Part shown: piece after piece, positions 1,577 through 44,878 of the stretch | How positions within the stretch are numbered: the stretch's first letter is position 1 | Layout of the letters: every line of letters starts with the position of its first letter | Virus record (IMG/VR): IMGVR_UViG_3300044557_000292 | Location: 323,388-387,387 of that record | Source: a virus | Taxonomy: Duplodnaviria > Heunggongvirae > Uroviricota > Caudoviricetes | DNA: 64,000 nt | Strand: one strand, 5' to 3' | Notes under the pieces: model-generated | What the model saw: only the letters and a program-made list of their open reading frames with translations | The model's database searches: none | Told to the model about the DNA's origin: nothing | Made by a program: the position numbers and the translations under genes

Positions 1577-1732
1577 ATGGTAGAGACTATCGTCGGTATC
1601 GTGGTGCTCGTGATCTTTGGACTCACCCTTAGCCACAGATCATTGAGCCGACTTGTACTCATTGTAGAATCTTACCAGTTCTACCCTCGCCCTGTCCTCT
1701 CCAACCTGACCATTGCTCATCCTGTACTCTAG
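1577..1732 (+). CDS. possible small ORF (51 aa, hydrophobic N-terminus MVETIVGIVVLVIFGLTL)
   Basis: ATG preceded by GAGGGGGAG Shine-Dalgarno 5 nt upstream; below the 60-aa cutoff of the ORF track; overlaps the 3' end of the CCA gene on the opposite strand. Confidence 0.2.
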   Translation: MVETIVGIVVLVIFGLTLSHRSLSRLVLIVESYQFYPRPVLSNLTIAHPVL

Positions 1733-3115
1733 CATGTGATCATAGAGGACACCCAGGACTGGACCAGGCTTGATCCCAAGGATGCTCATCATCTGGTTAC
1801 CGTTCAACTCGGGGCGGATCTTGTCAAGATCCTCCTTGGCCTTGAGCCTGGAGACGTGATCCTCCAGTTGGTCCATGTATCCAATGATGCGGGCCTCACG
1901 ATTCTTATGGAAGGTGGTCACGTCCGCCCTGGTAAGCACCATGAGACGATCATACAGCGGACCCACCTCCTGGAGGAATCTTCGCACACCAGAATCAGAC
2001 CATAAGACCCCGTTGGGATCAGCGTACCCATGTGCCCTCATGTGAAGGGCTACCAGGTCGCTCACATCCCTAATCACGTCATGAGGATACTTCAACGAGG
2101 ATAGCCTCTTCTTCACCATCCCGGCACCAGCAGCCTCGTGGCCATCAAAGGTCACCTTCTTCCTGCCGTTGAACCTCCTGGTGGTAGTCTTGCCCACGTC
2201 ATGGAGCACTGCGGCCAGTCTGAGGACAAGATCGGGGCCTCCATCAGGGAGTCTGTCCTCCATACTGATAGCCCTGTCAAGAACGGTGAGGGAATGCTCG
2301 AAGTTAGCCTTGTGGAGTCCACGGCTACTTCTATCAGCCCTCCTCAATTCTGACAACTCGGGGAGAACGTGATCCATGAGACCCGAATCAGACATCTCCC
2401 GTAGAGCGTTAGATGGGTTGGCTGACAGCATGATCTTGTTCAACTCGTCAGCAACCCTCTCCCTACTGATCTCATCAAGACGTGGGGTCATACTCCTTAT
2501 AGCGTTCATGGTCTCATCTTCAATCTTGAACCCATACTTGCCAACGAATCTGATCGCCCTGAGCATACGGAGTGGATCTTCACCGAAGGAGATCTTTGGG
2601 TCAAGCGGGGTGCGAATGACCCCACGCCTGAGATCTTCACGGCCTCCGTAGGGGTCAACCAGCACAAGATCAGGAAGTCTGATGGCCATCGCGTTGATGG
2701 TCATGTCACGACGCTTGAGATCATCTTCGAGGCTTGAACCCCATTCCACTCGAGGCTTCCTAGATCCACGATTATAGGAATCGGAACGGTAGGTGGTGAC
2801 CTCAACGTCAGCGTCAATATTCCCGGGGAGATGCCTGCGAGCACCAATGGTCCCATACTTACGGCCAACCTCCCAGTAGCCATCTCCCCACGGCATCAGT
2901 ATGCGGGAAGACTCATCTGGTCTAGCATTAGAGGTCATGTCAAGATCTTTTGGAACACGACCAAGAAGAAGATCGCGAACCGGTCCTCCAACAAGAGCCA
3001 GTTCATACCCCCTTGACTGGTATTCCCTTCCAAGACTGATGGATGCGTTGATGAGGGGGATGGCTGCATCTGGAATCATGATGCCACCCAGACCCTTGAC
3101 TGACAGGTTCTTCAT
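1640..3115 (-). CDS. cca: CCA-adding tRNA nucleotidyltransferase / poly(A) polymerase family with HD domain
   Basis: Pol-beta-like head motifs LVGGPVRDLLLGR and RRDMTINAMA, plus C-terminal HD region (LHDVGK, HMRAHG). Start moved to MKNLSVKG (ATG at 3115), which is preceded by GGAAGGAAGG; the tracked ORF extends to 3250. Confidence 0.8.
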   Translation of the reverse strand: MKNLSVKGLGGIMIPDAAIPLINASISLGREYQSRGYELALVGGPVRDLLLGRVPKDLDMTSNARPDESSRILMPWGDGYWEVGRKYGTIGARRHLPGNIDADVEVTTYRSDSYNRGSRKPRVEWGSSLEDDLKRRDMTINAMAIRLPDLVLVDPYGGREDLRRGVIRTPLDPKISFGEDPLRMLRAIRFVGKYGFKIEDETMNAIRSMTPRLDEISRERVADELNKIMLSANPSNALREMSDSGLMDHVLPELSELRRADRSSRGLHKANFEHSLTVLDRAISMEDRLPDGGPDLVLRLAAVLHDVGKTTTRRFNGRKKVTFDGHEAAGAGMVKKRLSSLKYPHDVIRDVSDLVALHMRAHGYADPNGVLWSDSGVRRFLQEVGPLYDRLMVLTRADVTTFHKNREARIIGYMDQLEDHVSRLKAKEDLDKIRPELNGNQMMSILGIKPGPVLGVLYDHMLEYRMSNGQVGEDRARVELVRFYNEYKSAQ

Positions 3116-3265
3116 AATCAGCCTTCCTTCCATTACTGTAGAAGCATTAACGTTAAAATGACAAATGACAATTGAATCATAATATGAAGACCCATAGGAA
3201 ACGCCGCGAGCCATGATGAGAATGGCCCGCGGCGTAGCAATACTCTCCACCAGCTGGATGAGATC

Positions 3266-3790
3266 CTATCGAGCTGACGGTGAGAGTATCAGCGTGACCG
3301 CAGACCCATTATACGTGGGCGGCGTCGAGATTACAAACACGTCTTCAAGCGAAGACACCATGGTCTTCATGCAGTCATACGCGACCTGCTTGTGATCACG
3401 CTCACGTCCACGAAGCTGCACGGTGAGGCGGACTTTATCACCCCTTGATAGGAATCGTACAGCCTGGTTCTTCTTGACCTCAAGATCATGTGATTCTATA
3501 TTCGGGCGGAGACGGATCTCCTTCAACTGCTGTACGCGAGCACTATGCCGCTGACGCTTGGCCTTCTGCTGCTCTTTAAATCTTTCCTCGGACGCATCAC
3601 CCATCTTCACGATGGGAGGATCATGACGAGCATCCATCTCAATGAGGTCAAATCCCGCATCATCGGCCAATCGAAGCGCGACGTCAGTATCAATCACCCC
3701 AGCGCTCTTACCGTTATCGCCTATGAGCATAACCCTGCTCGCGGTGATGTCCCCATTGATCTTCCTACGATTATCAGCGTTCTTACCCAA
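3266..3790 (-). CDS. infC: translation initiation factor IF-3
   Basis: 174 aa; N-domain ASRVMLIGDNGKSAGVIDTDVALRLADDAGFDLIEMDARHDPPIVKMGD and C-domain LKEIRLRPNIESHDLEVKKNQAVRFLSRGDKVRLTVQLRGRE match the bacterial IF-3 architecture; no rpmI/rplT downstream. Confidence 0.85.
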   Translation of the reverse strand: MGKNADNRRKINGDITASRVMLIGDNGKSAGVIDTDVALRLADDAGFDLIEMDARHDPPIVKMGDASEERFKEQQKAKRQRHSARVQQLKEIRLRPNIESHDLEVKKNQAVRFLSRGDKVRLTVQLRGRERDHKQVAYDCMKTMVSSLEDVFVISTPPTYNGSAVTLILSPSAR

Positions 3791-7557: not shown

Positions 7558-7618
7558 AGCTTACGTTGCTCCTCGTGTGGTGGACACAATCATGTTTACA
7601 TGATGCATCTAACGCGCT

Positions 7619-7837
7619 GGATGAACCCCCGCAACGCGGGGAATACCTGTCACCTTGAATGCTACTCGAGATCGTAGCACCGCGGGGATGAACCCCGCCT
7701 AGGCGGGGAATACGGGTGAGACTGGAATCGTTGTGATTGCTGGAGGTGGGTTCAACCCCGCAACGCGGGGAATACAGTGGGCTATTGAATGGTAGTGCTC
7801 ACATCTGTTGGGTTCAACCCCGCAACGCGGGGAATAC
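7619..7837 (-). CRISPR. small degenerate CRISPR array (4 repeats, 3 spacers); trailer side of the locus
   Basis: Repeats gatgaacccccgcaacgcggggaatac, gatgaaccccgcctaggcggggaatac and 2x ggttcaaccccgcaacgcggggaatac, with 33-35-nt spacers; the reverse complement GTATTCCCCGCGTTGCGGGGTTGAACC matches the type I-E repeat architecture. Confidence 0.8.
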
Positions 7838-7908
7838 GGCCTGTTCCACGGTCTTGTCAACATCTGTTGACATCATGATAGAGCTCATACTAAACGGTTA
7901 CGAGACGG

Positions 7909-8583
7909 TTACGGAGCGGTGCAATACTCCGTGTCTATGCTCGACAGCAGGGAGGCGTTCCTCGCGGTGAACGTCTTGGACATGGACACGACGCTGGATC
8001 TATTGGATCCACCCGAACGTGATCCGACGCTGACGTTGATCTTAAGATCATCGAAGAACCCGGACACGGTGCCTACAGTGCCACCATAGAAGACCCCGCT
8101 ACCAGCGTCAACGGAGCCACTGGAATCATCCGAGGACGAGACCATAGACGTGAGGATGATCTTACCCTCATCATAGTCCGAGTCCTTCGAGGCGTCCTTG
8201 GATCTACGGATCATCCTCATCGTCCCATTGGAACCATCACCGATGGAACCATCAGGATCCTTCACGACGGTCAGCGCCACACACCTGCCGACAGTGTCGG
8301 CACTTGTGGCGCTAGCGGAATCCGCCGACTCACTGGGAATCGCCATCACCACAGTCTGGTCACCATCAGAATCGGTGGTGATCCTGAACCCAGCCGCGGA
8401 TCTTGCGTCTCTCCCCACCATCTGCATGGCTGTACTCACCTGCGACGTCGCCTGTGATCTTATGGTGGCGGAGTAGTTCGCTCTCATCAGCTGGATGGCG
8501 CTGAGAGAGAAGAACGCCATGAAGATCGCCATCGCCACAAGAAGCTCCACGAGGGACGCACCATGCTCGCCCCTATGGATCAT
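7909..8583 (-). CDS. type IV pilin-like / pseudopilin protein (class III prepilin signal)
   Basis: N-terminus MIHRGEHG|ASLVELLVAMAIFMAFFSLSAIQLMRANYS has Gly at -1, Glu at +5 and a hydrophobic helix typical of prepilin-peptidase substrates. The tracked ORF extends to 8727, but the ATG at 8583 is the likely start. Confidence 0.6.
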   Translation of the reverse strand: MIHRGEHGASLVELLVAMAIFMAFFSLSAIQLMRANYSATIRSQATSQVSTAMQMVGRDARSAAGFRITTDSDGDQTVVMAIPSESADSASATSADTVGRCVALTVVKDPDGSIGDGSNGTMRMIRRSKDASKDSDYDEGKIILTSMVSSSDDSSGSVDAGSGVFYGGTVGTVSGFFDDLKINVSVGSRSGGSNRSSVVSMSKTFTARNASLLSSIDTEYCTAP

Positions 8584-8774
8584 GCCCACACCATTGCCTA
8601 CATGTCTGTCCACATTATTGTCTACACCGGTGTCTGCACCCATTCGAGCATGTCCGAGCGTCCGTCCATACGCATATGTCCTCATCTTAATCTTCATCCT
8701 ATTCCCCCGTGGATCTAGTGGCGTCAACGAGCATCGAAGTCGTATAGTAGCTTATGGTATCACCACGCGAGACG

Positions 8775-10105
8775 GGTTCAACCCCGCAACGCGGGGAATA
8801 CCATCACTGGAGCCATCACTGGAGCAATCACAGTCAGGTTCAACCCCGCAACGCGGGGAATACGCTGCCGCATTACTGACTTCACGACCGTGAACCAGGG
8901 TTCAACCCCGCAACGCGGGGAATACCACACCGTTTGCAGCGAAGCTGCCTACCGAATCTAGGTTCAACCCCGCAACGCGGGGAATACGGAACGCTCTCTC
9001 TTTACTCTCAAGACCCGTCGAAGGGTTCAACCCCGCAACGCGGGGAATACTGATCTTCGTCTTTCCGGACTCAGTTTTGGTCAGAGGTTCAACCCCGCAA
9101 CGCGGGGAATACGCATTGATCGTTCTTATTGCGTTGAGAATGATACAGGTTCAACCCCGCAACGCGGGGAATACTTGAAGCCGGAGCCGGCTCACAGGAA
9201 ACGAAGCCAGGTTCAACCCCGCAACGCGGGGAATACTTGAAGCCGGAGCCGGCTCACAGGAAACGAAGCCAGGTTCAACCCCGCAACGCGGGGAATACAG
9301 ACGGCGGGCTAATCCATGAGCCGGGTAAGCGCAGGTTCAACCCCGCAACGCGGGGAATACCAAGCGCTATAATCTGTATGATGCGAAGCATACTAAGGTT
9401 CAACCCCGCAACGCGGGGAATACGTCTGTCGCACGTTGTTCTGAGATGAAATCTCCAGGGTTCAACCCCGCAACGCGGGGAATACTTTGCGATCTAATTC
9501 GTCCGCTTCGTTTGTAGAAAGGTTCAACCCCGCAACGCGGGGAATACTTGTTTCAATAGGATTGGCTCAGATTCAACTATAAGGTTCAACCCCGCAACGC
9601 GGGGAATACTCGAATCAGAAGAGGAGATTGCTGAGATGGCAGAAGGTTCAACCCCGCAACGCGGGGAATACCTGCACACGAAGCCTGATCCAATACCACG
9701 CGTAGGGGTTCAACCCCGCAACGCGGGGAATACTGATTATTTTTGTCTTTCTGTTTAGTTATAATATAGGTTCAACCCCGCAACGCGGGGAATACCACGC
9801 CTGCGATCTGCCACACGGGCTAGCACTGAGGGTTCAACCCCGCAACGCGGGGAATACCCATTGAATTTCGACTTTCTTCAGATCGAGTCTAGGGTTCAAC
9901 CCCGCAACGCGGGGAATACTTCAGTGCGCTTGGGTACTAGCACAGGACGGTGAGGGTTCAACCCCGCAACGCGGGGAATACAGTTCATGTTCTTCGATGA
10001 TGAGTAGCCGAAGATGGGTTCAACCCCGCAACGCGGGGAATACGTCTAGTTGGTCAACGTTGTTCGTTGCTACTACAAGGTTCAACCCCGCAACGCGGGG
10101 AATAC
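8775..10105 (-). CRISPR. CRISPR array, type I-E-like repeat, 22 repeats and 21 spacers (period 62)
   Basis: Perfect repeats ggttcaaccccgcaacgcggggaatac, equivalent to GTATTCCCCGCGTTGCGGGGTTGAACC on the minus strand, with a stem CCCCGC/GCGGGG like I-E. Spacers are 34-35 nt; two adjacent spacers (9177-9210 and 9239-9272) are identical; degenerate repeats lie at the low-coordinate end, so transcription is from the minus strand. Confidence 0.95.
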
Positions 10106-10218
10106 GCCTAGGAACGTTGAGACCACGTTAACGATGGTCGAGTACCACCACGATTCTCGTTAACGTAGATCAACATTCCGAACCCTCGAAAGAACCTCTA
10201 TTGGAATCATCACAGTTG
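10106..10218 (-). promoter_or_regulatory. putative CRISPR leader
   Basis: Non-coding sequence immediately 5' (on the minus strand) of the first perfect repeat; inferred from the orientation of the I-E-like repeat. Confidence 0.35.
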
Positions 10219-10704
10219 CTAGAAACCGTTATTCTTGGTTGGACCCGCTGCCGCTATCGAGCATCCTCGTTCACGGCGACCCTGATTCCTAGCAGGGGTA
10301 TGACCGTCGCCTCTCGGACGACGGGAGCGAACCGTCTGTAACACGGTGCTCAACCCGAATCTGTTGTTCTTGTGAAGCTTCCCCAGTCCGCGGAGTGCTA
10401 TGATATAGCCCGCAGCGTCATCCTTGTCACCCGTGTACCCGCACGTGTCGCATGTGAAGGAGTGGGTCCTAGGATCCGTGTCTTCGCAACCGGAGTGATC
10501 TTACCCTCCATCACGTACCGCCTTAGCGTGGAGTCCACCACCACAGGATAGTCGGCCGCTTCCTTGGGCCTGCACATTCCGTTCCTCATGTTGTAAATAT
10601 ATTACGGTAGTAACGCCAATGACACGAAAGCAGGTATCTAATGAATACAATATTAAGATATCAAGCATCAGTACAACCACATGATAAGATATCAGGAGGC
10701 ACAT
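10219..10704 (-). pseudogene. decayed TnpB/Cas12-like C-terminal fragment (zinc finger plus RuvC-III motif)
   Basis: Minus-strand frame reads ...RLSCGGGLHAKAVRDGG*DHSGCEDTDPRTHSFTCDTCGYTGDKDDAAGYIIALRGLGKLHK..., matching the TnpB/Cas12 C-terminal pattern CxxCG...D(A/K)DxNAAxNI..RG. It is interrupted by a stop and has no start codon; tracked ORFs 10398..10589 and 10501..10704 are pieces of it. Confidence 0.45.
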
Positions 10705-10740
10705 GTGGGACTCACGTCAGGGTCACGAGCCCGCCGCGTC

Positions 10741-11448
10741 TCAATCCCACATGTACGGGAGAACCTCACCTATCCATGCCCAAACCCTCTTGAATTCAGA
10801 CTCGACGCGCTTCTCGTAAGCTTGATCGCCAACGATGCCCAGCGTACGATCCTCATAGTCTTCAAGGGCGGTGTCGTTAAGGCGCGAGTACCTCCTGAAG
10901 ACCCTGGATGCATAATACAGATCCTGCGTCCAAGCTGCTCCATCAGCACCATACTCCTCAACGGTCTCATTAAGCTTATGATTAAAGTCTTTAGTGGATC
11001 CAATCTTTGACCAATCTATCGACACAATGCTGAACCGGTTCCATGGTGTCTTCAACCACTCTTCATAATCATCATCATGCTTGTTCAGCCAGTACCTGCG
11101 ACCATTATGAATGTTCGCGTCTCCATCATCTTGAATATAGAGGGGAGGATACCCGTGATCGGTTCTAGCCAGTTCAAGCATGAGCCTAGATAGCCTATCA
11201 ATCTCGCGATCACCAAGATCCCAAACATCATAATCGTCATACCCACGACGCGCCCTCTGGAACGTTCTCTTAACCCGGCCAGGAAGCTCACTCGCGTTCC
11301 TGTGAATGAACCCGTACGCTGTCTGCAATGGTGATGGAAGATGATCATACAGGGAATCACCGATATCCTCCAGCCCGTCCCTTAGACCATGATGCTCTTC
11401 ATCTTCATCATAAAGACTAGTTGTTATGTCCTGACCCTCACTACTCAT
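10741..11448 (-). CDS. hypothetical acidic protein
   Basis: 235-aa ORF, no recognisable motifs. Confidence 0.45.
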   Translation of the reverse strand: MSSEGQDITTSLYDEDEEHHGLRDGLEDIGDSLYDHLPSPLQTAYGFIHRNASELPGRVKRTFQRARRGYDDYDVWDLGDREIDRLSRLMLELARTDHGYPPLYIQDDGDANIHNGRRYWLNKHDDDYEEWLKTPWNRFSIVSIDWSKIGSTKDFNHKLNETVEEYGADGAAWTQDLYYASRVFRRYSRLNDTALEDYEDRTLGIVGDQAYEKRVESEFKRVWAWIGEVLPYMWD

Positions 11449-11486
11449 GATGCTAATCTCTCCTTAAAACCGTCCATCGTTAATAC

Positions 11487-14293: not shown

Positions 14294-15556
14294 TTATCGT
14301 ACAGTATCCAGGATCTTTACAGCCCTAGCATTAAAGTCCACGCTTCCAATAAAGTAATCATATGCTCGCTCCCTGAACTGGTCATAATAATCATCGCTTG
14401 ACAAGAGCGCACGGTACTTCTCCGAGAAGTCATCCCACTGGGAGTCATCAGCCCATAGCGAATCATCATCAGTTGACGGCAATGCTAGCATACCGAACTC
14501 GGATAAATCGCGATCAGGCATGAGGGTGCCCCTGTACATGGATGGAACGGCTAGTACGGTGCCATTCTGGATGATTTCCAGTGTGACGTATTCTGGTAAA
14601 AGATTCATTTTTGGATCTAGGAATGACGTGTACATGCCTACGAAAGACTCACTGATGAGGCGTTCTCCCACTTTGGGATCATATAGTCCATAAATCTGGG
14701 CCTTATCCTCCAAGGTGTTGGAGAAATGGATGTCAGTCTTATTCTTCTTATGATACTCGAGGAATGGCTTGAAGACTTTTGGCTTGAGGCTTACCGTGAG
14801 TTTTGATACCGTGCCTATACTAGGCATGAGGCCATTCATACAGAGGTTAATGTCAATATGATGGTTAGCGCATCTCTGCTTGAAATCTAGCCATTGAATC
14901 CATCCCTTCCATGCCGGCGTTCTTCCCTGCCAGTAGAATTGCATTCTATACTTATCTTCCGGGGATCGCCAGTTCTTCCTGCTCTTGTCGAACAGGGTGT
15001 TATGCTGCATGTAATGGACCTTGTTGAGGAATTCCTTACTTTCCGTTCCATTGAGACTAGAATTGATGACCTTAACGATCTCGTCCCCGGTACCGAAGGT
15101 GATGAAGCTATCCAAATGTTTGAAGATACTGTTATCAAGCTTGACTCCAAGCTTCTCTGACTGCGCTATCCTGTGGCCAACATTAATATAGATCAGCTTA
15201 CCGTTATTCTTCTTGTCAAGGATAAGATCTGTCTGCCGTCTTATGGGCTTCATGGCCTCTAGTTTATACGAGTCGTCCCCCTTATTCCAATTCTTAAGGG
15301 TGGGCCAGTTAAGGTTAAAGATCACGGTCATCTCTGCTTGACGGAAATGGAAGTCTTCATCCATGAGGTCAAAGAACGCATCATTACTCCTCGGTTCTTC
15401 CTTCCTCGACATGCCCTTGGAAAACGTGTTCGTGTTCAAATAGACCTTCACGTCATAACCCAGACTCGCGATGATGGACTCAAAGTTCCGTAAAGCGTTG
15501 TCTAGTCCTCCATACGTGTTTCCAATCATGTTGATGATATTGATTCTTATCGCCAA
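14294..15556 (-). CDS. hypothetical protein (K/N-rich, lower GC)
   Basis: 420-aa ORF; local GC is clearly lower than the neighbouring genes. Confidence 0.5.
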   Translation of the reverse strand: MAIRINIINMIGNTYGGLDNALRNFESIIASLGYDVKVYLNTNTFSKGMSRKEEPRSNDAFFDLMDEDFHFRQAEMTVIFNLNWPTLKNWNKGDDSYKLEAMKPIRRQTDLILDKKNNGKLIYINVGHRIAQSEKLGVKLDNSIFKHLDSFITFGTGDEIVKVINSSLNGTESKEFLNKVHYMQHNTLFDKSRKNWRSPEDKYRMQFYWQGRTPAWKGWIQWLDFKQRCANHHIDINLCMNGLMPSIGTVSKLTVSLKPKVFKPFLEYHKKNKTDIHFSNTLEDKAQIYGLYDPKVGERLISESFVGMYTSFLDPKMNLLPEYVTLEIIQNGTVLAVPSMYRGTLMPDRDLSEFGMLALPSTDDDSLWADDSQWDDFSEKYRALLSSDDYYDQFRERAYDYFIGSVDFNARAVKILDTVR

Positions 15557-18489: not shown

Positions 18490-19749
18490 TCAGTACTGCT
18501 CGATGGAAACAGAATCGCTCTTGTGGTCAATTCTAGCAATGCTGAGGAATCCGCCCTTGTCCACCCTCGTCTCCAGATTGAAGATCTTACTGAACTCCCT
18601 TGGGTCATGACGATGTTCGTTACGATGCCCGTGGAATTGTATAACATCGGTATTCGCATCTTCAACGATCTTGTCAATATCAATCTTGTAGTCATGAACC
18701 ATTGGGCTCCCCCCGGTCCCGTACCACCAGGTCGACCCGCTCGTGAAGCCAATGTCATATGACCTGTAACCATCCAGCTCATGGTGCTCAAGCATGGCTG
18801 GATGTACTCCCCCATGAGACGAGAAGTAGTGCTTACCATCATAATAGAATGGGAAGTAGTCAACAAGATGAGTATCAATCAACCGCCCGTACCTCCGGAG
18901 GTTCTCTACTGAACCGTGAACATACTTAGAATCCCTTAGAATCTCCTCAATTGTCTTCCTCGTGGACAAAGAGTACGGCTCCCATACTTTAGATCCATAG
19001 TACTTAAAGTAACTGTCATGATTGCCCTTGATGAATACCCTGTTCGTATCATTGATATGATCAATGATCCAATCAAACATTGGCCCGGCTTCATCTTCAG
19101 GCCCACGATCCATAAGGTCACCACAGAACACGGTGAACTCACGAGGATTAATATTGTCTGCGCCAGATCTTACGAACGTGGAGTAGCAGCCCTGAATATC
19201 CCCAATCACCCTGACGTTCGAGTACTGGGAGAGCTCTGTCTCTTGAATCTTCCCTTGACCGCAGAACTCATCTACCGTCATTGCTGACTCGCTCCTATTG
19301 ACCTGAAATCTCCTCGTATCAGTCCAAGTCTTCTCCACCTCAGCGTCAGTCCAAGGTCTGTTCGCCCTGTGGGAACGCTCAATAACCTCTTCCAGTGATT
19401 GTTCTCCCTGAACGTTGACGAACACGACCTCGTAATTGTACTCATGTGCGAGATTCAGGATAGGATTAATCTTCTTGCGCTTTGAGTTCGTCCAATCAAA
19501 TATGATAGCATCCCCGGAACGCATCCTGCGCTCTATAATCTTGCAGGCGATGTCTAATGCTGTCCGTATGTTCTCGTTCGTAGAGTCACACCCGTAGGCG
19601 ATCTTACCATTATGATAATACGGCCTGTTCGGATCGATGATTCTCAATATGGAGTCAACGGATACGGTCTGGTCCTCCAGATGCTGTCTACGGATCAGGG
19701 TGGTCTTTCCTGACCCGTGCGCTCCCCGTATAATAAATATTTTACTCAT
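18490..19749 (-). CDS. polynucleotide kinase-phosphatase-like protein (P-loop kinase plus calcineurin-like metallophosphoesterase)
   Basis: N-terminal Walker A GAHGSGKTT; C-terminal metallophosphatase motifs GDIQGCY, GDLMDRGPE, GNHD, HGG and FHGHRNEH. Confidence 0.7.
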   Translation of the reverse strand: MSKIFIIRGAHGSGKTTLIRRQHLEDQTVSVDSILRIIDPNRPYYHNGKIAYGCDSTNENIRTALDIACKIIERRMRSGDAIIFDWTNSKRKKINPILNLAHEYNYEVVFVNVQGEQSLEEVIERSHRANRPWTDAEVEKTWTDTRRFQVNRSESAMTVDEFCGQGKIQETELSQYSNVRVIGDIQGCYSTFVRSGADNINPREFTVFCGDLMDRGPEDEAGPMFDWIIDHINDTNRVFIKGNHDSYFKYYGSKVWEPYSLSTRKTIEEILRDSKYVHGSVENLRRYGRLIDTHLVDYFPFYYDGKHYFSSHGGVHPAMLEHHELDGYRSYDIGFTSGSTWWYGTGGSPMVHDYKIDIDKIVEDANTDVIQFHGHRNEHRHDPREFSKIFNLETRVDKGGFLSIARIDHKSDSVSIEQY

Positions 19750-19770
19750 AAGTCAATAGTAACAATAAGG

Positions 19771-19860
19771 GGTGAACACCGCAACGCGGGGAATACTCTT
19801 GAATGATCTCCCGTCACCAAGTTTGAATACAGGTTCAGACCCGCCTACACGGGGTTCACC
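19771..19860. CRISPR. solitary degenerate CRISPR-like unit (2 diverged repeats, 1 spacer-length insert)
   Basis: ggtgaacaccgcaacgcggggaatac, then a 34-nt insert, then ggttcagacccgcctacacggggttcacc; sits exactly between the topA stop (19861) and the PNK start (19749). Confidence 0.6.
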
Positions 19861-20949
19861 CTAACGCTTCCTTGAAACCCTTCCAGATGCGGGCTTCCTC
19901 CTCGCAGGATGATCTTTCTGATAATCATCCCATATTTCCTTAGCCCGATCAGGAGACAGCGCCCTGGGATCTTCCCCATCTGGAAGCGATATGAATACAG
20001 CACGACCACGCGGAGCATTCTTATGACCCAGCCACGCCCCCCTCTTCCCTATTCCAGTGAAGAACCCGTCACCGAGCTGTCGTGGTAGCTTCACCTCTGA
20101 GAACATCTGCTCAGCATCTTGAAGGGTCACCGTGTCCTCAGTGAGACCACCGTCCTTGGGAAGCGTCATGTTCACGGGCTTAGCGCTCTTCACTGGTGAA
20201 CCATCCTTATGGATCCTCACGGCCTGCACGTAAGAGCCATACTTACCATTCCTAGCCGTCACCTGCCATCCAGCATACGGGCCGTCCTTCAGTATCCCCA
20301 GGACACGATTCACGGGCGATTTTGCCTCATCTAGTAGCTTCCTGCACGCGCCCGGCGTGAGGGCGTCTTCATCTGTTAGAACGGAATCATCCAGCTTCAC
20401 GCTCTTCACGTACCCAGAATCATTCTTCTCCCCCGAGGGGTCTTCAAGCCACGCGCCAGACCTGTTCACCCTGACCACGTACCCGCCGTTGAGATGAACC
20501 TCCGACAGCGTGTTGATCTCATTCCAGTCAATATTCCTAGCGAGACCATTCACCCTGCCATCAATGCCGTCAGGAGCCTTCCACACGCCATCAAGGAAGT
20601 CATCCCTTGATAGCGATCCGTCACCGATCTTATCAAGATCTTCCTCCATGGATGCGGTGAACCCGTAGTCAACGTACCCCGGAATCTTATCCTCAAGAAT
20701 CTGGGCGACCTTCATGCCCGTCCATGTCGGCGCCATCGCCCTTCCCTTCTTCTGCACGTACCCGCGCTTCTGATTCACGGTCACGAGGTTAGCATACGTT
20801 GACGGTCTACCAATACCAAGTTCTTCCAACTTGGCCACAAGTTGCGGCTCTGTGAACCTTGCCGGAGGTGTAGTCGTGTGCATGGTCGAGGATGCTGTTG
20901 ACAACTCACATTCCTCCCCAACCTTGAACTCATGCGTATTCCTTGCCAT
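19861..20949 (-). CDS. topA: DNA topoisomerase I, C-terminal portion (downstream of the in-frame TAA)
   Basis: TPPARFTEPQLVAKLEELGIGRPSTYANLVTVNQKRGYV matches the conserved topo IA domain III/IV region. Confidence 0.75.
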   Translation of the reverse strand: MARNTHEFKVGEECELSTASSTMHTTTPPARFTEPQLVAKLEELGIGRPSTYANLVTVNQKRGYVQKKGRAMAPTWTGMKVAQILEDKIPGYVDYGFTASMEEDLDKIGDGSLSRDDFLDGVWKAPDGIDGRVNGLARNIDWNEINTLSEVHLNGGYVVRVNRSGAWLEDPSGEKNDSGYVKSVKLDDSVLTDEDALTPGACRKLLDEAKSPVNRVLGILKDGPYAGWQVTARNGKYGSYVQAVRIHKDGSPVKSAKPVNMTLPKDGGLTEDTVTLQDAEQMFSEVKLPRQLGDGFFTGIGKRGAWLGHKNAPRGRAVFISLPDGEDPRALSPDRAKEIWDDYQKDHPARRKPASGRVSRKR

Positions 20950-20967: not shown

Positions 20968-22389
20968 TTATTCTTCACCGTCATCATACACGGACAGGAA
21001 TCCCCTGTCATCTATCCTCGTACTACTCGTCGTGAACACGGCCTTACCGTCACTAGATGTAATCGTGATCTTTCGCGTGATCCCCCTCGCAGGGTTCATC
21101 TGGCTAGCCACGGTCCTCCTGTACACGAGATCATAGACCTCACCAGCCTTAGCGTCATATGAGGAAGATGCCGTCAGCCCCCTGATCTTCGCTGGATCAT
21201 AGAATATTCCCGTTGATTCCTCTACAACAGGACGGATGCACTCGTGACCCTCCTGAGCATTCTTAGACTTCGACTTGTATATGATCGGCTTTGATGGCAT
21301 CTGTCCACCGTACTGTTTACGGATAATACTCCTCGCCGCCCTCACGGCCTCATCTGCCATCGCTGGGCTGTCCGTCCTTGAGTATGTTTGATACGTGTGC
21401 TCGAAGAGCTGCTGGGCTATACTCATAGCCCTGCTGGCCGTGAGCCCAAGCATGGATCCAACATTCTGCTGGTATGATGACGTGGTGTACGGGGTTGGAG
21501 GATTCCTCTTATAGGGCTTCTCCGTAATGTCAGTGATACTGTACTTTTTTGACTTCAGGTCTTTTAGGATCTTCTTCACATTATCATCACTGAGGGTGAG
21601 CTTATCTGAGGATCCATCCTTCAGCATGCCGTCAGGACCGTAATCAGATCCCGATGCTATTCTACTCCCATCGTACTCCACGAGGCTAGCCGTCAATTCG
21701 GCTTCCGTCCCCCTGTTAAAAACAGCCTCAATGGATCCATATGACGCCTTCACGAAGCCTAGGCGATCCTTCTCCCTGTTCACGACGAGGCGCAGGGTGG
21801 GTGACTGCGCCCTGCCTCCAGACGTCCCAGACCCTACCGTCTTCCAAAGGTATGGGGAGATACTGAACCCGAAGAGACGATCATAGACCTGCCGGGCCTC
21901 TGCCGACTCGGCCTTCCGCACGTCTATACTAGCATATGACTCCAGACCGGCAAGCACTGCCCGCTTCGTGATCTCATGCCAACTCGCCCTGCGGACATCC
22001 ATGCCAGACTTCTTGAGATCTGATTCTAGCGACTGCACGACCTCGTATCCAATGAGCTCTCCCGCCTCGTCCGGATCAGTACTCACATAGAAATGCTTCC
22101 ACCTGCCAGACCTGACCTCAGATCTGATCTCACCCCACTGCTTACGATTCTGAGGGTCATGATCTAGGAGACGCTCATAACGCCCACTCCGCACGTCGAT
22201 CGAGTAATCGCCGTACCGTTCACGCTCTTGACTAGTGCTCTTCTTCGGGTCCTTGAGCTCGAACATGAAACCCTTCGTGGCCATGATCTTCCACCCGCTG
22301 CCAAGGAACCCAGTGATCTCCCTGGCCTTGGTAGGCGACTCAACGATCATGAGGCCGCCGTCACGCTGAATGTCTTCTATGATTGCCAT
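20968..22389 (-). CDS. topA: DNA topoisomerase I, N-terminal portion (TOPRIM plus domain II), ends at an in-frame TAA
   Basis: LMIVESPTKAREITGFLG TOPRIM motif; the stop (TAA at 20968-20970) is in the same frame as the downstream ORF and separated from its ATG by 18 nt. Confidence 0.75.
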   Translation of the reverse strand: MAIIEDIQRDGGLMIVESPTKAREITGFLGSGWKIMATKGFMFELKDPKKSTSQERERYGDYSIDVRSGRYERLLDHDPQNRKQWGEIRSEVRSGRWKHFYVSTDPDEAGELIGYEVVQSLESDLKKSGMDVRRASWHEITKRAVLAGLESYASIDVRKAESAEARQVYDRLFGFSISPYLWKTVGSGTSGGRAQSPTLRLVVNREKDRLGFVKASYGSIEAVFNRGTEAELTASLVEYDGSRIASGSDYGPDGMLKDGSSDKLTLSDDNVKKILKDLKSKKYSITDITEKPYKRNPPTPYTTSSYQQNVGSMLGLTASRAMSIAQQLFEHTYQTYSRTDSPAMADEAVRAARSIIRKQYGGQMPSKPIIYKSKSKNAQEGHECIRPVVEESTGIFYDPAKIRGLTASSSYDAKAGEVYDLVYRRTVASQMNPARGITRKITITSSDGKAVFTTSSTRIDDRGFLSVYDDGEE

Positions 22390-31297: not shown

Positions 31298-32701
31298 TCA
31301 CTCACCAGTATCAGATGCAGTTTCCTTTTCCGTGGCCGTCGTGCCTGCAGGCGTGTCGGCAGTCGCGGCCCCATCAGGATCAGGATTCTGGTGCGCTAGC
31401 TCTCTCAGAGACTTCGCGAGATCAACACCGGTGAGCGTGTTCACCAGTGTTGGCAACTTGGCAGCAAGATCGGTTACGAGACTAGATGTCCGATCCTGCG
31501 CGTCTGTACCAACCGAGGTGATGGTAGCGCCCTCAAGAGGCTTGCTCAGGGATGCGGCAAGCTCAGGCAGCTTCTCGATGATGAGTGACTGCAGGGCAGC
31601 CTGACCATACTTACGATAGGCCTCCGCCTTCTTGTTCATAGCCTCGGCCTCTGCAAGACCCTGTGCCCTCACAGCGTCAGCCTTGGCCTCACCCTGCGCT
31701 CTAATCGCCTCGGCCTCAGCGACAGCTCGCGCCTTCGTTGCGGCAGCCTCAGCATCAGCATTCTGACGGGTGACCTCGGCCTGGGCCTCAGCATCAGTCT
31801 TCCTCTTGTACTTCTCAGCGTCAGCCTTCGTGTTCACGTCAGACTCAAGACGAACCCTCTGCAGCTTGACGTTCTCAGCTTCGGCGAGAGCCTCGGCCTC
31901 AGCAATCTTCTTATTCTGTGCCTGCTGTTCGAGACTCTTCACGGCCTCAGCGTTCACATCAGCCTTACCGATGTCAGCCTTAATGCTTGCCTGTTGTAGA
32001 GCGAGATCCTTCTGACTCAGAGCGATCTCTCGATCAGCGGCGATCTGCGCTTGCTGGGCTTCCTGCTTAGCATTCGCCTCAGCAATCGTGGCGGCCTTCT
32101 TCACAGACGCTTCCTGAGGAGCACCAAGAGCATCAATATAACCAGTCTGGTCATTGATCTCCTGAATCTGGAGCGTATCCAGGGACAGCCCCTGAATGGT
32201 GATAGAGTCAGCGACCTCATCACGGACAGCCTTCGTGAACTCAAGACGATCAGAGAGAAGACTCTCGACCGTCATCCCGCCTACGATAGACCTCATCGAT
32301 CCCTCAATGATTTCCTTCACGTACGGCTCCATGATCTGTTCCTGCCGAGAGAACCTCTGGGCTGCCAGGCGGATGTCCTCATCGGTGTTATTCACCTTGA
32401 AGGTTGTAACGACCTTGAGGTGGATCTTGATCTTCTCCTTAGAGATGGCATCGCATTCAGTACTGATCTGATGCGACTTGAGGGAGATGCTCACCACCCT
32501 GTTGATGAAAGGCCAGACGAATCCTCCACGATTCTGGAGAACCCTGACCGCTCTGTTCCCATTATCATCTTTACCATTTGATCCAGAGATGACGTAGGCC
32601 TCGTTGATGGTCGGCGTCTTATACCGGCTCACCAGGAACCATACTAGCAAGATGACGATCAGTATGATTGCTCCTGCGCCTATAGGGGTCGAATAATCCA
32701 T
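31298..32701 (-). CDS. flotillin-like SPFH/band-7 protein
   Basis: N-terminal TM, SPFH domain, then a long Ala/Glu/Gln/Lys coiled-coil repeat region (AEANAKQEAQQAQIAADRE...). Confidence 0.85.
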   Translation of the reverse strand: MDYSTPIGAGAIILIVILLVWFLVSRYKTPTINEAYVISGSNGKDDNGNRAVRVLQNRGGFVWPFINRVVSISLKSHQISTECDAISKEKIKIHLKVVTTFKVNNTDEDIRLAAQRFSRQEQIMEPYVKEIIEGSMRSIVGGMTVESLLSDRLEFTKAVRDEVADSITIQGLSLDTLQIQEINDQTGYIDALGAPQEASVKKAATIAEANAKQEAQQAQIAADREIALSQKDLALQQASIKADIGKADVNAEAVKSLEQQAQNKKIAEAEALAEAENVKLQRVRLESDVNTKADAEKYKRKTDAEAQAEVTRQNADAEAAATKARAVAEAEAIRAQGEAKADAVRAQGLAEAEAMNKKAEAYRKYGQAALQSLIIEKLPELAASLSKPLEGATITSVGTDAQDRTSSLVTDLAAKLPTLVNTLTGVDLAKSLRELAHQNPDPDGAATADTPAGTTATEKETASDTGE

Positions 32702-32838
32702 TCATATTCCTTTCCGAGAAATTGAGCCCATTGACTATTATGCATAGCACGAACAGGACTAATCGTCACGTTTCAATGCATACGAGATAATATAATACCA
32801 TTATTCCAATCAATATGAAATCAATCAATTCGGTATCG

Positions 32839-33774
32839 TCAAATCTTATCCAGGTTATCCAGGAATATTTGATCATCAAACGGGTCATGATCACTGTTTT
32901 CAAGTTCGGTAACGATCACGTCAATCACGTACTTGTCCTTGGAGGCCTTTCCACCACCGTAGAAGCTTGTATTCTTTATGAAGTTATTGTTATCATCATG
33001 CCATAAGACGCACGTGTCAGTCCCACCGTCTTGCAGTGGCTTCACGGTAGGCCAACAGTTGGGAGCATCGAAGTCGTGCTTCGTGATCACGTTCGACCTC
33101 ACGTCAAAACGAACGATACCAGGGAATAAGAGCCTCTTCTCATTCAAGGCCAGCTTCTCCTTGATGTACGACTTCCTATCAGCGTTGGATCTTCTCCGAT
33201 CCTGCTTCTCGTGTGTCTTCCTGAACATATTCTTGTACCTGGTTAAGATCTTCGACTCTAATCTGTACTGAAGCTTGACACCCCTGAGATCGTCTTCCAC
33301 CGCCCTGATCTTACCGGACAATTCCACATGCTTGTACGCCGATCGGGGAATCGTTCTATTCTCCGTCTTCAATGCTGACAGGCCTGACTTCATCTGACTG
33401 ATCTTATCCTCAAGTGAAGACACGATGCACTTCTGCGCGTCATAATCGTCGAACGCCTTCCTCTCTGTTGGCGTATAGTCAGTTGAGGACAGATTCCACG
33501 AGGAGGGTTCTAGGGCGATGAGACCGAATTCATGCTCTATGGCAGAACCCCATACCTTCTCACCGTATGCTCTCAGCCAGGCGCTCTTCTGCCGTGACGT
33601 GATGTCATTATCACCGGTATTCGACCCCTTGTAATGCTCCCTTGGAATGGTGAACCTCACCCTTAGTACCTTGGGATCATCAGAGTGAGATGAACGCACC
33701 TTGAATCCAGCATCAGTATCGTCTTCGATCACATTACCAGTATCCTGAAATCCATCGGACATGATTAGTACCAC
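32839..33774 (-). CDS. hypothetical protein
   Basis: 311-aa ORF. Confidence 0.45.
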   Translation of the reverse strand: MVLIMSDGFQDTGNVIEDDTDAGFKVRSSHSDDPKVLRVRFTIPREHYKGSNTGDNDITSRQKSAWLRAYGEKVWGSAIEHEFGLIALEPSSWNLSSTDYTPTERKAFDDYDAQKCIVSSLEDKISQMKSGLSALKTENRTIPRSAYKHVELSGKIRAVEDDLRGVKLQYRLESKILTRYKNMFRKTHEKQDRRRSNADRKSYIKEKLALNEKRLLFPGIVRFDVRSNVITKHDFDAPNCWPTVKPLQDGGTDTCVLWHDDNNNFIKNTSFYGGGKASKDKYVIDVIVTELENSDHDPFDDQIFLDNLDKI

Positions 33775-34796
33775 CCATTAGAATTGCTATGCTGAGCTGC
33801 CGCCGAGGGGGAACCATACCTGGACGCAATGTAATTCAGCCCCCAGTCGACCTGCACCCTGTAATCTGATCTGTACGCATCGGTCTGGCACTCACTGTGG
33901 CCAAGGCATTGCGGGATTCCAGACGCTCCGGATGACGCATTGTATGACGACGGATTCCATCCCGACTCACGATTCCACAACCATACGAGAGCACTGAATT
34001 CAGATTCACTCCACCCCCGGCTCAAGACCTTAGAGTGAGCATAAGACTGCGCATCCCCGGCCGGCACAGCAGGAGTCATTGGGGAAGACGCACCTGATGC
34101 CGTTGAAGATGGCATCTCCTTAAGATTAGAGTACGCGGATGAGAGGCCATTCATGGTAGCATTCAGGGCCGATGGATCCAAACTTTTGTTATGAATGAGG
34201 TCATTAGCCGCATTGACGTTAGACGACCATTCAGACCAGCTATCACTCGTGTACTTGTCCTTATCAAGACTCTTGTGATCATTCAAGAATCCCTGCATCT
34301 TGCCTTTTATACCTATGGCCTTGTCTTGGGTCTCCGCCTGGTTCTTCAAATTGGACTTGAGTTGTTCAGAATCCTCTCCGAGAGTCCAAGTGCCATCACC
34401 AGTGTTAGCGTTCTTCTCGGAAAGGTACTCCCTTTGAAAGTCCCTCGACACTCTACTACCAGAAGACAATGAGTAGTGATCTTTAACAACGCGAGATTTG
34501 GGAGGGATCGCCCGGAGCTTTGCATCTGGCGCGCGGAGATGACCCATTATTGACCACATAACGCTTGTGGCTATCATGACTGCGATCATAATGACTGCAA
34601 CAATGATAGCTTTCCTGTTGATATTAATGGGAGCAGCATGCCGCGCTGAACCCGCGCGCTCGTATTCTATTCCACGCCGATTCCTAATAGGATCGTCTCT
34701 CGTGATCGTCTTATCTGGCTTCATATAAAGAATAGATATGTCCGTCGGGCTTGTTCTTCCGGTAATGTTCATGATAAACGGCATCAATACAATCAT
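33765..34796 (-). CDS. membrane-anchored protein with C-terminal SLT-like lytic transglycosylase domain
   Basis: N-terminal TM; C-terminal NRESGWNPSSYNASSGASGIPQ matches the SLT family motif E-S-x-x-N-x-x-A-x-S-x-x-G-A-x-G-L-M-Q. Confidence 0.55.
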   Translation of the reverse strand: MIVLMPFIMNITGRTSPTDISILYMKPDKTITRDDPIRNRRGIEYERAGSARHAAPININRKAIIVAVIMIAVMIATSVMWSIMGHLRAPDAKLRAIPPKSRVVKDHYSLSSGSRVSRDFQREYLSEKNANTGDGTWTLGEDSEQLKSNLKNQAETQDKAIGIKGKMQGFLNDHKSLDKDKYTSDSWSEWSSNVNAANDLIHNKSLDPSALNATMNGLSSAYSNLKEMPSSTASGASSPMTPAVPAGDAQSYAHSKVLSRGWSESEFSALVWLWNRESGWNPSSYNASSGASGIPQCLGHSECQTDAYRSDYRVQVDWGLNYIASRYGSPSAAAQHSNSNGWY

Positions 34797-35203
34797 ATTA
34801 GCAAGGGCAATACTAGCGCAATGAGGGTAGCTCCAGCGACAATGAACGCGACGATCTTAACGGTAAGACGCTCAACCTTGACCTTCCTCGCGGGACGAGG
34901 ACGAGTTGGGTCCTCATGCTGCTCCCTCAGCTTTTCCGCTCTGTCCTTCACCCTACGGCTCATAGCCACGGATATTGAAGATGAGTCTATGGTCGCATGG
35001 CCCTTAGGAGAGGAATCTTCGGAATGGTCATCGCCATTGCTTGGCGGCACGGCATGGGTCTTGTCATCAACGGGATCATTCCCACTACTCATTGCTGAAC
35101 GACGGGCCTCCTCGGCCTTTAGATTCTCAACCCTCCTGCTCTCCTTCTCAAGACGCTTCATGCGTTCTTGCCGCTTCCTCCTTGATGCCGATCTTGACGA
35201 CAT
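34793..35203 (-). CDS. hypothetical basic/coiled-coil protein with C-terminal TM
   Basis: 136-aa ORF. Confidence 0.4.
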   Translation of the reverse strand: MSSRSASRRKRQERMKRLEKESRRVENLKAEEARRSAMSSGNDPVDDKTHAVPPSNGDDHSEDSSPKGHATIDSSSISVAMSRRVKDRAEKLREQHEDPTRPRPARKVKVERLTVKIVAFIVAGATLIALVLPLLI

Positions 35204-35205
35204 GA

Positions 35206-35823
35206 CTATCTTCCTCCTATCTGATTCGGGTATCTGCTTATGGTAGATCTCCCCGCACGCACCTTGTATGATGCAGAGGGACCGTCAACGATTCCAAAGA
35301 GCTTCCATGCTCCAACGGTCTTCAACCATGCTATCATTCTGTCAACATCTTCCTGAGTGGAATCCTCCATGTCAATGATCACGGAAATGTCACCAGTGAA
35401 ATCCTCATTGACGTGATCTTCCCACCCGTTGAATAGTCGAAGGGCGAAGTCCTCATCCATCTCCTCATCGCTGAACATGGTCTCCCTAGTGATAGTGACA
35501 ATGTCCACGTTGACTGGGCTGACCACGGCGGCAGCGCAAATCTCGTCACGAAGATTCCTAATGAAAGCACCGCGACTAGATCTGATCGCGTAAGACATAG
35601 CCCATCTGCCCTCATTATCCAGATTATTGAAGGAATCCTTCCTCGTATAATGCTTCACATTCCTAATATCGACAGACCGCAACTTCCTGTCGACCTTCAC
35701 CACGTCAAGTCCCAGTGATGATACAGCACGATCTTTAAGCCATCCATTCAAGATCGTGCGCGTCCTCATGCCATCGACCACAGATTGAATCTTATCAGAT
35801 TCATCATTTATTATTCTTCTCAT
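35206..35823 (-). CDS. hypothetical protein
   Basis: 205-aa ORF. Confidence 0.45.
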   Translation of the reverse strand: MRRIINDESDKIQSVVDGMRTRTILNGWLKDRAVSSLGLDVVKVDRKLRSVDIRNVKHYTRKDSFNNLDNEGRWAMSYAIRSSRGAFIRNLRDEICAAAVVSPVNVDIVTITRETMFSDEEMDEDFALRLFNGWEDHVNEDFTGDISVIIDMEDSTQEDVDRMIAWLKTVGAWKLFGIVDGPSASYKVRAGRSTISRYPNQIGGR

Positions 35824-35920
35824 TTACAGAACTCCATCCCAATCGTCATCACGAGCAGCGGATGACTAAGACGTTATAACCAAATAGTCATTATAACTTT
35901 ATAATCATGTGAGAATCAGG

Positions 35921-36658: not shown

Positions 36659-36786
36659 AACCCGTCAAACATCGTCAGATTATTAAGATATTGAACGATA
36701 TGGTTAGAACCAATCGATCTTAATATAATCCAATAATTGGGGCCTTATGGGAAGACCCCCATACATGACCCCTGGTCAACGTGAGT

Positions 36787-38097: not shown

Positions 38098-38165
38098 GAA
38101 TACATTATAACAACAGATGACCTAACAATGCAATTCGCAGGACGAGGAGATGATTCTATCATACT

Positions 38166-38801: not shown

Positions 38802-38840
38802 TCTTCTTAGTATGGAATGGTATCGTCAGTAGAATCACAC

Positions 38841-39773: not shown

Positions 39774-39891
39774 GAGTAAAAATAATAGACGCCTGATTAC
39801 ACCATTAAGATATGTGCAATCAGGCGTCTACGGTGATGATCCAGGAATTTGATTCTAATGGGGGATAGTGAGGGCCACTATGGGGATTCGA

Positions 39892-40860: not shown

Positions 40861-41001
40861 GACTCCTTACCGTTTCCATTAACATCTAATTGATTCCTGT
40901 TACATGTTCTATTATATCCAGTATGACTGGTTAAAGCAATTCAAGATCAATCACGTTACCAGTCATACGGTACCATATCATCCACAAGACGTGATGCGCA
41001 G

Positions 41002-44809: not shown

Positions 44810-44878
44810 TCAAATCCTAAGCAAACATCTACCCGGCCTAATAGGATAACCTTCCTATCAAGAGAAAAGTGAAGCATT

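Follow-up and report, generated by a model that had tools for sequence, protein, structure and literature searches.

A type I-E-family CRISPR array without nearby cas genes in an exchanged accessory cassette of a huge phage

Introduction

What does a CRISPR array do in a phage that carries no cas genes beside it? To our knowledge, huge phages with cas-less arrays have been on record since 2020, and there has hardly been a test of whether such arrays do anything. The question is raised anew by a 64,000-nt stretch of DNA (positions 323,388 to 387,387 of virus record IMGVR_UViG_3300044557_000292, Caudoviricetes), which we refer to as the window and which holds a CRISPR locus at 7618–10105 on its minus strand. 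The original prediction had described this locus as a single type I-E-like array of 26 repeats within a phage-like gene block and had proposed a cas-less mini-array that relies on the I-E machinery of the host.

Here we show that the array is real and stable across samples, that its repeat belongs to the I-E family and that the window has the gene content of a huge phage. Three features had been missed: the array is split by a pilin gene, a relic of a TnpB/Cas12-family gene lies at its leader, and the whole locus is an exchangeable cassette. The reading that we favour, with roughly even confidence, is an orphan I-E-family array carried in a recently exchanged accessory cassette by a huge lytic phage of ~0.35–0.42 Mb that lives in a milk-permeate bioreactor and probably has an actinobacterial host.

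Results

Structure of the array

A repeat finder reports 26 copies of a 29-nt unit at 7618–10105. The repeat core, GTATTCCCCGCGTTGCGGGGTTGAACC on the minus strand, is 27 nt long and is followed by one pyrimidine (C in 13 copies, T in the other 13) and a 34-nt spacer, which gives a period of 62 nt and spacers of 35 nt if the pyrimidine is counted. The core is identical in 24 of the 26 copies rather than in 22, as had been counted, and the two degenerate copies lie at the low-coordinate end. There are 24 spacers, 23 of them unique (previously given as 20), with spacer 9175–9207 duplicated at 9237–9269.

The repeats were scored with a covariance model made from 30 repeats of the I-E family. The two low-coordinate copies reach 37 and 27 bits and the other 24 reach 39.5 bits each; in the rest of the window, only one site, the solitary repeat at 19770–19796 described below, has an E-value of ≤ 0.01. 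Ten shuffles of the sequence yield no repeat copy at ≤ 7 mismatches, and no further CRISPR array was found in the 64 kb. The hairpin of the array repeat amounts to −11.0 kcal/mol.

The locus is not continuous, as had been assumed, and consists of two repeat blocks separated by a 935-bp gene-bearing insert (7838–8772). Block A (7618–7837, minus strand) contains four repeats, two of them identical to those of block B and two degenerate, together with three spacers, and represents the old trailer end. Block B (8773–10105, minus strand) contains 22 identical repeats and 21 spacers, one of which is the duplicated one. Nine independent assemblies are 100% identical over the locus, both repeat–insert junctions included: five from the Joint Genome Institute (JGI), which represent five samples and share an identical block B, and four Logan assemblies of raw runs. 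The split is thus no assembly artefact, and the array is unchanged between samples. With the covariance scores and the shuffles, this agreement confirms that the 26 repeats form a genuine array.

The leader (10106–10218, minus strand) comprises the 113 nt from the stop codon of the TnpB/Cas12 relic to the first repeat and has a G+C content (GC) of 46%. It bears no similarity to the flanks of 120 bacterial I-E arrays, these being among the matches listed. Leader and insert were also compared with bacterial I-E loci by blastn and tblastx in search of leader homology or a cas2 remnant, and nothing was found. No sigma-70-like promoter was found within the leader. The spacer that adjoins the insert (8801–8831) contains a 12-nt tandem repeat, CCATCACTGGAG, in 2.6 copies; its source is therefore probably a repetitive coding region.

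Repeat family and orientation

To collect related repeats, one genome from each species was scanned with a degenerate pattern, which returned at least 120 loci. Among the matches listed, the closest repeat is 2 edits away and belongs to a metagenome-assembled genome (MAG) of uncultured Clostridium sp. UMGS615 (locus L061). The array of L061 is situated directly downstream of genes for Cas5, Cas6e (PF08798, 1e-56), Cas1 and an I-E-type Cas2-DnaQ protein (Cas2 PF09707, 1.2e-32), in the same orientation. Since a repeat only 2 edits away directly adjoins an I-E cas operon, we assign the phage repeat to the I-E family, in agreement with the original prediction. The layout of L061 also supports the proposed minus-strand reading, in which the leader (10106–10218) occupies the high-coordinate side and the degenerate repeats mark the trailer.

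The repeat shows the hallmarks of its family: the 28–29-nt length class, a stem-loop of the form CCCCGC...GCGGGG and a handle region of 8 nt at the 3′ end. With bacterial I-E arrays, such as those of L061 and E. coli K-12, it shares the 5′ start GTATTCCCCGC, the 6-bp CCCCGC/GCGGGG stem and a handle region with a terminal AACC plus pyrimidine; the polarity from leader to trailer is likewise common to both, as is the degeneracy of the last repeat. The pyrimidine occupies repeat position 28 in all 26 copies, as it does in bona fide I-E arrays, and is polymorphic in bacterial I-E arrays as well. In E. coli I-E, such a polymorphic base is what a base carried in with the protospacer-adjacent motif (PAM) looks like.

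Nevertheless, the phage array differs from its bacterial counterparts in several respects. It has no cas operon nearby, its leader is unrelated to those of the 120 listed bacterial loci, and it combines a 3-nt loop with a period of 62 nt. Among the matches listed, 57 of 61 related genome arrays pair a 4-nt loop with a period of 61, and two pair a 3-nt loop with a period of 60. Given its 3-nt loop, the period of 62 means that the phage spacers exceed the family norm by 2 nt (34 + 1 nt versus 32 + 1 nt), and the array thus departs from the I-E pattern of a period of ~61 with spacers of 32–33 nt.

The accessory cassette

The array is part of a 3123-bp accessory cassette (7618–10740, minus strand), which is composed of the gene relics, the leader, block B, the pilin gene and block A. 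A sister contig (L008) is 98–99% identical to the window on both sides of this unit and holds in the same slot 1041 bp with a CHAP-domain gene. The breakpoints are sharp: the sequences part directly behind the upstream gene's stop codon, and homology resumes directly behind the last degenerate repeat. A more distant relative of 349.7 kb (L009) also carries a CHAP gene in this slot. The presence of CHAP in both relatives indicates that it is the older state and that the array unit replaced it recently.

The gene just upstream of the cassette also varies in length, with 235 residues in the window, 353 in the sister contig and 330 in the more distant relative. Comparison of window 11424–11486 with L008 12497–12915 shows that the window lacks, or has other sequence for, ~360 nt in the 5′ part of this gene, which makes the gene a second variable spot beside the cassette. 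All five JGI array contigs stop exactly at 7178, and two of them start exactly at 11680; these shared ends suggest strain-level heterogeneity that breaks the assemblies.

The insert between the two repeat blocks encodes a type IV minor pilin (7909–8697, minus strand; 262 residues). The likely true start is at 8583, from which the protein begins MIHRGEHG, followed by ASLVELLVAMAIF. This is a class III prepilin signal (GEHG before ASLVELLVAMAIF) with a hydrophobic N-terminal helix, and when the protein is trimmed to the likely start it reaches 21.3 bits with Pfam N_methyl, for which the cut-off is 21.2. A word-index search returned only the protein itself; an exhaustive HMMER search (phmmer) recovered ten pilin homologs, the best with 47% identity. 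Those members of the homolog cluster that have names are prepilins of Bifidobacterium and a "type II secretion" protein of Bifidobacteriaceae. An alignment of eight sequences shows no variation at G(−1) and E(+5). The homologs are situated in PilT–PilB–minor pilin–PilC–peptidase–PilM/O operons, one of them on a Bifidobacterium chromosome, and none of the bacterial pilus loci with pilin homologs contains an I-E repeat. An AlphaFold model calculated without an alignment has a predicted local distance difference test (pLDDT) score of 39.6 and is unfit for a fold search.

The prepilin signal and the homologs in Bifidobacterium pilus operons together identify the insert gene as a captured host-type minor pilin. 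Since the insert is edged exactly by intact repeats, it either entered at a repeat or lies between what are two arrays.

At the leader end of the cassette lie two overlapping gene fragments on the minus strand. The first (10219–10500) is the C-terminal relic of a TnpB/Cas12-family gene, with a zinc ribbon and the RuvC-III motif THSFTCDTCGYTGDKDDAAGYIIALRG at 10467–10375; it matches Pfam Cas12f1-like_TNB with an E-value of 0.03 over profile positions 33–58 of 60. The gene is cut at a junction at 10482, so that only the last 35–60 residues of the nuclease survive, and what is left is no longer a single open reading frame (ORF) with an intact RuvC-I/II/III domain plus zinc ribbon. The second fragment (10398–10589, MRNGMCRPKEAADYPVVVDSTLRRYVMEGKITPV...) is in a different reading frame and resembles the helix–turn–helix (HTH) proteins of the MerR/HTH_17 type; sub-threshold matches to Pfam HTH_17 and MerR (E 0.12) are its sole matches.

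A variant contig that co-occurs with the array (L134, sample 3300045600) retains more of the nuclease gene. Within its positions 1–69, the relic frame continues upstream (VKVNPARTSHECPAC...), and the breakpoint between window and variant falls at a GGATCC site. The 110-residue peptide of this contig matches Cas12f (9nzq; E 2e-4, residues 362–421 of 433), IS605 OrfB proteins and CasPhi-3. A search of a 5.8-billion-protein database with this fuller TnpB-like peptide gave no homologs. Contigs that contain the gene upstream of the cassette are all window-type variants, and an intact nuclease gene was not recovered from them. Although the scores are weak, the HTH fragment and the TnpB end fit an internally deleted element of the IS607 insertion sequence (IS) type, in which the HTH fragment may be an N-terminal remnant of TnpA.

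The position and orientation of the relic, 113 nt before the first repeat, allow another reading, namely that of a decayed type V-like locus. The nuclease would then be left over from an effector that had taken an array of I-E origin as its guide source; its gene is destroyed here and may be intact in the phage that co-occurring L134, with its longer gene remnant, represents. The effector-then-array layout recalls the CasPhi/Cas12j, Cas14/Cas12f and type V-U loci of huge phages, in which a TnpB/Cas12-family gene lies immediately upstream of an array without Cas1 or Cas2, and huge-phage CasPhi and Cas14 loci do consist of effector plus array without adaptation genes (PMC7162821). Here, only 35–60 terminal residues are left, and the repeats, at 27–28 nt and with an I-E PAM-derived pyrimidine, are unmistakably of the I-E family and not type V-like. 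Type V repeats are ~36 nt long and have their hairpin next to the spacer. The HTH fragment fits an IS607-like tnpA–tnpB relic, and no intact homolog of the nuclease was found. We consider a former type V-like locus very unlikely; if true, it would be a snapshot of TnpB turning into a CRISPR effector by borrowing the array of another system, on a huge phage.

The main rival to the orphan-array reading is an inert passenger, that is, bacterial or mobile-element DNA (IS relic, array and pilin gene) that recombined into a plastic slot and has no CRISPR-related function. The cassette does contain bacterial-type genes (the pilus-operon minor pilin and the TnpB relic), its GC of 53–55% exceeds that of the flanks (~50%) and of the CHAP cassette (46.5%), and neither relative has it. 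The array does not change between samples, and the collections searched yielded neither a spacer target nor a matching host repeat (see below). Against an inert passenger, 24 repeats are perfect in spite of ~2% divergence of the flanks from the sister phage, which a recent origin would explain too, and the array variant persists in at least five samples. The same lineage also keeps a separate repeat element in its core genome (see below), which argues for a real engagement with I-E systems. All in all, an inert passenger appears rather unlikely.

cas genes

No Cas family is found among 60 long ORFs searched with Pfam or 71 ORFs searched with PADLOC, which cover 90% of the 64-kb window. The claim that these 64 kb contain no cas gene is thus borne out, and there is no complete I-E system of adjacent cas3, cse1, cse2, cas7, cas5, cas6e, cas1 and cas2 genes in the window. 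Weak PADLOC "Cas3" matches were rejected, as they correspond to the HD domain of a CCA-adding enzyme and the P-loop of a clamp loader.

The cas genes that serve the array could instead be encoded elsewhere in the ~0.4-Mb phage genome, which would make the system self-sufficient. The sequence read amounts to the 64 kb plus flanks of ~2 kb and 1.4 kb, and type I and type V effectors are known from huge phages (PMC7162821). However, the arrays of characterised I-E loci, such as L061, lie next to the cas operon, whereas a gene relic and phage genes are the neighbours here, and the cassette is a 3.1-kb unit that was exchanged on its own. We regard a self-sufficient system as quite improbable.

A second repeat element in the core genome

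The further site recognised by the covariance model is a solitary repeat, GTATTCCCCGCGTTGCGGTGTTCACCC, at 19770–19796 on the minus strand (three mismatches; 18.5 bits, E ~0.01), of which 10 shuffles give no equivalent. It is a single repeat copy between genes, on a mobile element and away from cas genes, as is typical of solitary repeat units of the RNA anti-CRISPR (Racr) kind. A degenerate unit (19832–19859) lies 63 nt upstream of it, with 20 of 28 positions matching, a 5-bp hairpin and a CTGAACC tail; 0.13% of random windows are as good. The stretch between the two units (19797–19831) is 35 nt long and thus has the unusual spacer length of the array. From its sequence, the element as a whole (19770–19859, minus strand) looks like a mini-array of repeat, spacer and degenerate unit. 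It can also be modelled as a single long imperfect hairpin, the outer ends of which are reverse complements (z −1.7). The element is located in a 111-nt intergenic gap between the split topoisomerase I (TopA) gene and a gene similar to polynucleotide kinase (PNK), and it is also present in the sister contig without the array (L008, 4120–4209). Its conservation in the core genome suggests that this phage lineage has long been engaged with an I-E host system.

A further, 5′-truncated copy of the repeat (CGCGTTGCGGGGTTGAACC), with 19 of 19 nt identical at the 3′ end, is situated upstream of nrdF ~1.33 kb past the right end of the window (L005, 126–152); this Logan contig stops 125 nt beyond the copy. 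A possible second repeat-like partner beside it was not significant and was rejected.

Solitary repeats have been shown to act as RNA anti-CRISPRs, in two cases against I-E systems (Camara-Wilpert et al. 2023, PMC10651486), and phage mini-arrays, termed Cracr arrays, can turn I-E Cascade on its own promoter (Liu et al., bioRxiv 10.1101/2024.10.29.618823), so that I-E examples of both classes are validated. Element 19770–19859 resembles them in being intergenic, cas-less, slightly degenerate and part of a phage core genome. It differs in that it coexists with a full-size array of the same family, its hairpin contains a C–U mismatch, no promoter or target was identified, and its function is putative.

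The likeness leads to a further explanation, in which transcripts of both the array and the core element would serve as RNA decoys or regulators. They might soak up Cas6e and Cascade in a Racr-like manner or, as Cracr arrays do, repress host cas or defence promoters through Cascade, without any attack on competitors. Published I-E Racrs (PMC10651486) and phage I-E Cracr arrays (bioRxiv 10.1101/2024.10.29.618823) provide the precedent, and the solitary, slightly degenerate repeat between core genes speaks for it. The array itself fits less well: its spacers are full-length (35 nt) and diverse (23 unique), like an immune record, whereas the published I-E Cracr array had spacer-like sequences of 21–24 nt (bioRxiv 10.1101/2024.10.29.618823). 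As for the core element, its solitary repeat has a weakened hairpin (−4.7 versus −11.0 kcal/mol in the array repeat), inspection by eye revealed no promoter-like site directly ahead of it, and the element matches none of the cas loci fetched. A role confined to decoy or regulation thus seems improbable to us.

Phage genome context

The window is 90% coding, and 62 of its 82 ORFs are on the minus strand. Family searches identify a CCA-adding enzyme, IF3, a DnaX-like clamp loader, a split topoisomerase I, two PNK-type RNA-repair proteins, NrdE, NrdI, a T4-type deoxynucleoside monophosphate (dNMP) kinase and thioredoxin, so that the phage-style functions named in the original prediction (dNMP kinase, PNK/RNA ligase, clamp loader and ribonucleotide reductase) are all present. 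PHROGs adds an rIIA-like protein (8.5e-45) and an alpha-glucosyltransferase (1e-13). Homologs of the rIIA-like protein occur in 2505 phage records, and those of Streptomyces, Rhodococcus and Aerococcus phages come nearest. An 830-residue protein that adjoins the array has a homolog with 50% identity on the 349.7-kb contig and distant homologs in jumbo phages, among them a 485-kb uncultured phage; in IMG/VR it has no close relatives. The longest listed contig that carries the pilin-insert protein measures 419,707 bp. About half of the ORFs match no family, and the 64 kb contain no capsid or terminase gene. A tRNA scan of the window found none, Rfam at gathering and permissive thresholds returned nothing relevant, and neither the window nor the array matches INPHARED phages by megablast or blastn. 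The gene content is that of a huge phage.

With regard to the host, the pilin and the actinobacterial affinity of the rIIA-like and 830-residue proteins make a Bifidobacteriaceae-like host or donor the best lead, and we treat it as no more than a lead. The phage probably infects an actinobacterium. The pilin hints at Bifidobacterium as the host; in that case, the phage would be most unusual for the genus.

The sister contigs of the window share the Ga04557xx identifier series with the UW_MP MAGs, which come from bioreactors fermenting ultrafiltered milk permeate (PMC9302107), and the phage is thus an inhabitant of a milk-permeate (dairy-waste) fermentation bioreactor.

Several neighbouring genes deserve mention. 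A CCA-adding/poly(A) polymerase-HD enzyme and a full-length IF3 (1640–3790) are present in both relatives as well. Topoisomerase I is split into two minus-strand ORFs that are 18 nt apart (19861–20949 and 20968–22389), as it is in the sister contig. The upstream ORF encodes the Toprim domain and N-terminal part, and the downstream ORF, which has a GGGAGG ribosome-binding-like site before its start, encodes the C-terminal part with the C-terminal repeats. The two RNA-repair-type genes encode a PNK/phosphatase (18490–19749; PHROG 2e-63) and a PNK-Rnl1 fusion (54535–56055). A membrane and stress cluster (31298–45694 and 60330–60878) with SPFH/flotillin, TelA, VKOR and two LemA proteins, and with TM2 and DUF805 proteins nearby, is unusual for a phage.

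The alpha-glucosyltransferase (14294–15556; the PHROG match given above) and the T4-type dNMP kinase (51951–52625) are a hint that the DNA of the phage is modified and possibly glucosylated; the 64 kb showed no hydroxymethylase. Glucosylation of T4 DNA impairs type I-E targeting. By analogy, there is a hint that the phage might be protected from borrowed I-E machinery.

Discussion

How could an orphan array work in this phage? The cassette would have come from a bacterium or a different mobile element, where an I-E Cas1–Cas2 complex with a slightly longer ruler (34 + 1 nt) may have built the array. The array has the same coding strand as nearly all phage genes, and a promoter-like site (10625–10596, minus strand) lies upstream of the HTH fragment; judged by sequence, transcription in the phage might start at this site, ahead of the gene relics. 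The precursor of the CRISPR RNAs would mature, be loaded and act only if the infected cell provides Cas6e, Cascade and Cas3. The phage could then redirect host immunity at competing phages and plasmids and would also occupy host Cas proteins. Spacers would not be added within the phage.

A number of results weigh against such a working orphan array. The search for cas genes covered 64 kb, about 15% of the ~0.4-Mb genome. The two comparisons proposed with the original prediction, of the repeat with host genomes that carry I-E arrays and of the spacers with phage and plasmid databases, were both run and gave neither a host nor a target. The exact repeat is absent from 185,579 GTDB species genomes, the JGI metagenomes and IMG/VR, the nearest repeat among the matches listed being that of L061. 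I-E arrays are present in two MAGs of the same bioreactor project (Agrilactobacillus and Megasphaera, among the matches listed), with repeats that lie 5 and 6 edits from that of the phage and deviate from it at two positions of the handle. Compared with the window, the retrieved parts of its relatives, INPHARED and PLSDB, the phage spacers give no matches that exceed chance, and three of them, searched as exact 25–26-mers, are absent from IMG/VR. The geometry is atypical, too: all 36 metagenome arrays with a TTGAACC handle have a 4-nt loop and a period of 61, and none of 97 related arrays (two sets, among the matches listed) combines a 3-nt loop with 35-nt spacers. In one published case, a loop smaller by one base impaired Cas6 processing (bioRxiv 10.1101/2024.10.29.618823). 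In the reverse direction, 1169 spacers from the 120 listed bacterial I-E loci gave only chance-level matches of 14–18 nt to the window and its relatives. Spacers directed at other phages or at host genes are thus not found in the collections searched.

The proposal of a cas-less mini-array that relies on a host I-E system therefore stands in part. The 64 kb contain no cas gene and have a huge-phage gene content. However, 26 repeats do not make a mini-array where the median in huge phages is six, and reliance on the host stays conjecture, as the repeat occurs in no genome, metagenome or viral contig searched.

The organisation itself has been described before, as the original prediction had stated. 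Al-Shayeb et al. (2020; PMC7162821) reported arrays in huge phages that lack genes for adaptation or interference, that in some cases have host-like repeats and that have a median of six repeats. The present array resembles them in a phage genome that is probably larger than 200 kb (judged from the 349.7-kb relative and the listed contig of 419,707 bp), in the lack of adaptation and interference genes nearby and in its bacterial repeat family. It differs in its size (26 repeats) and its 62-nt period, in the pilin-gene split, in the TnpB/Cas12 relic at the leader, in a documented cassette swap that left the 98%-identical sister without the array, and in the solitary repeat or mini-array that coexists with it. 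The described arrays can have host-like repeats; for the present array, neither a host that has its repeat nor a target of its spacers was found. The locus thus belongs to a kind of phage array that is already known, and the split, the relic, the swap, the period, the size and the coexisting solitary repeat are the points of difference.

A full-size array and a solitary repeat or mini-array in one genome would allow the "weapon" and "decoy" uses of repeat RNA to be compared in a single phage. In addition, the phage with the array cassette and its 98%-identical sister with the CHAP cassette form a natural near-isogenic pair in one bioreactor system, for which the project provides 34 metagenomes from many days and two reactors (PMC9302107). 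These existing data could address whether the array variant has an advantage and what its spacers hit. The main value of the locus lies in the natural test case that the sister phage and the reactor time series provide for what a cas-less array does in a huge phage.

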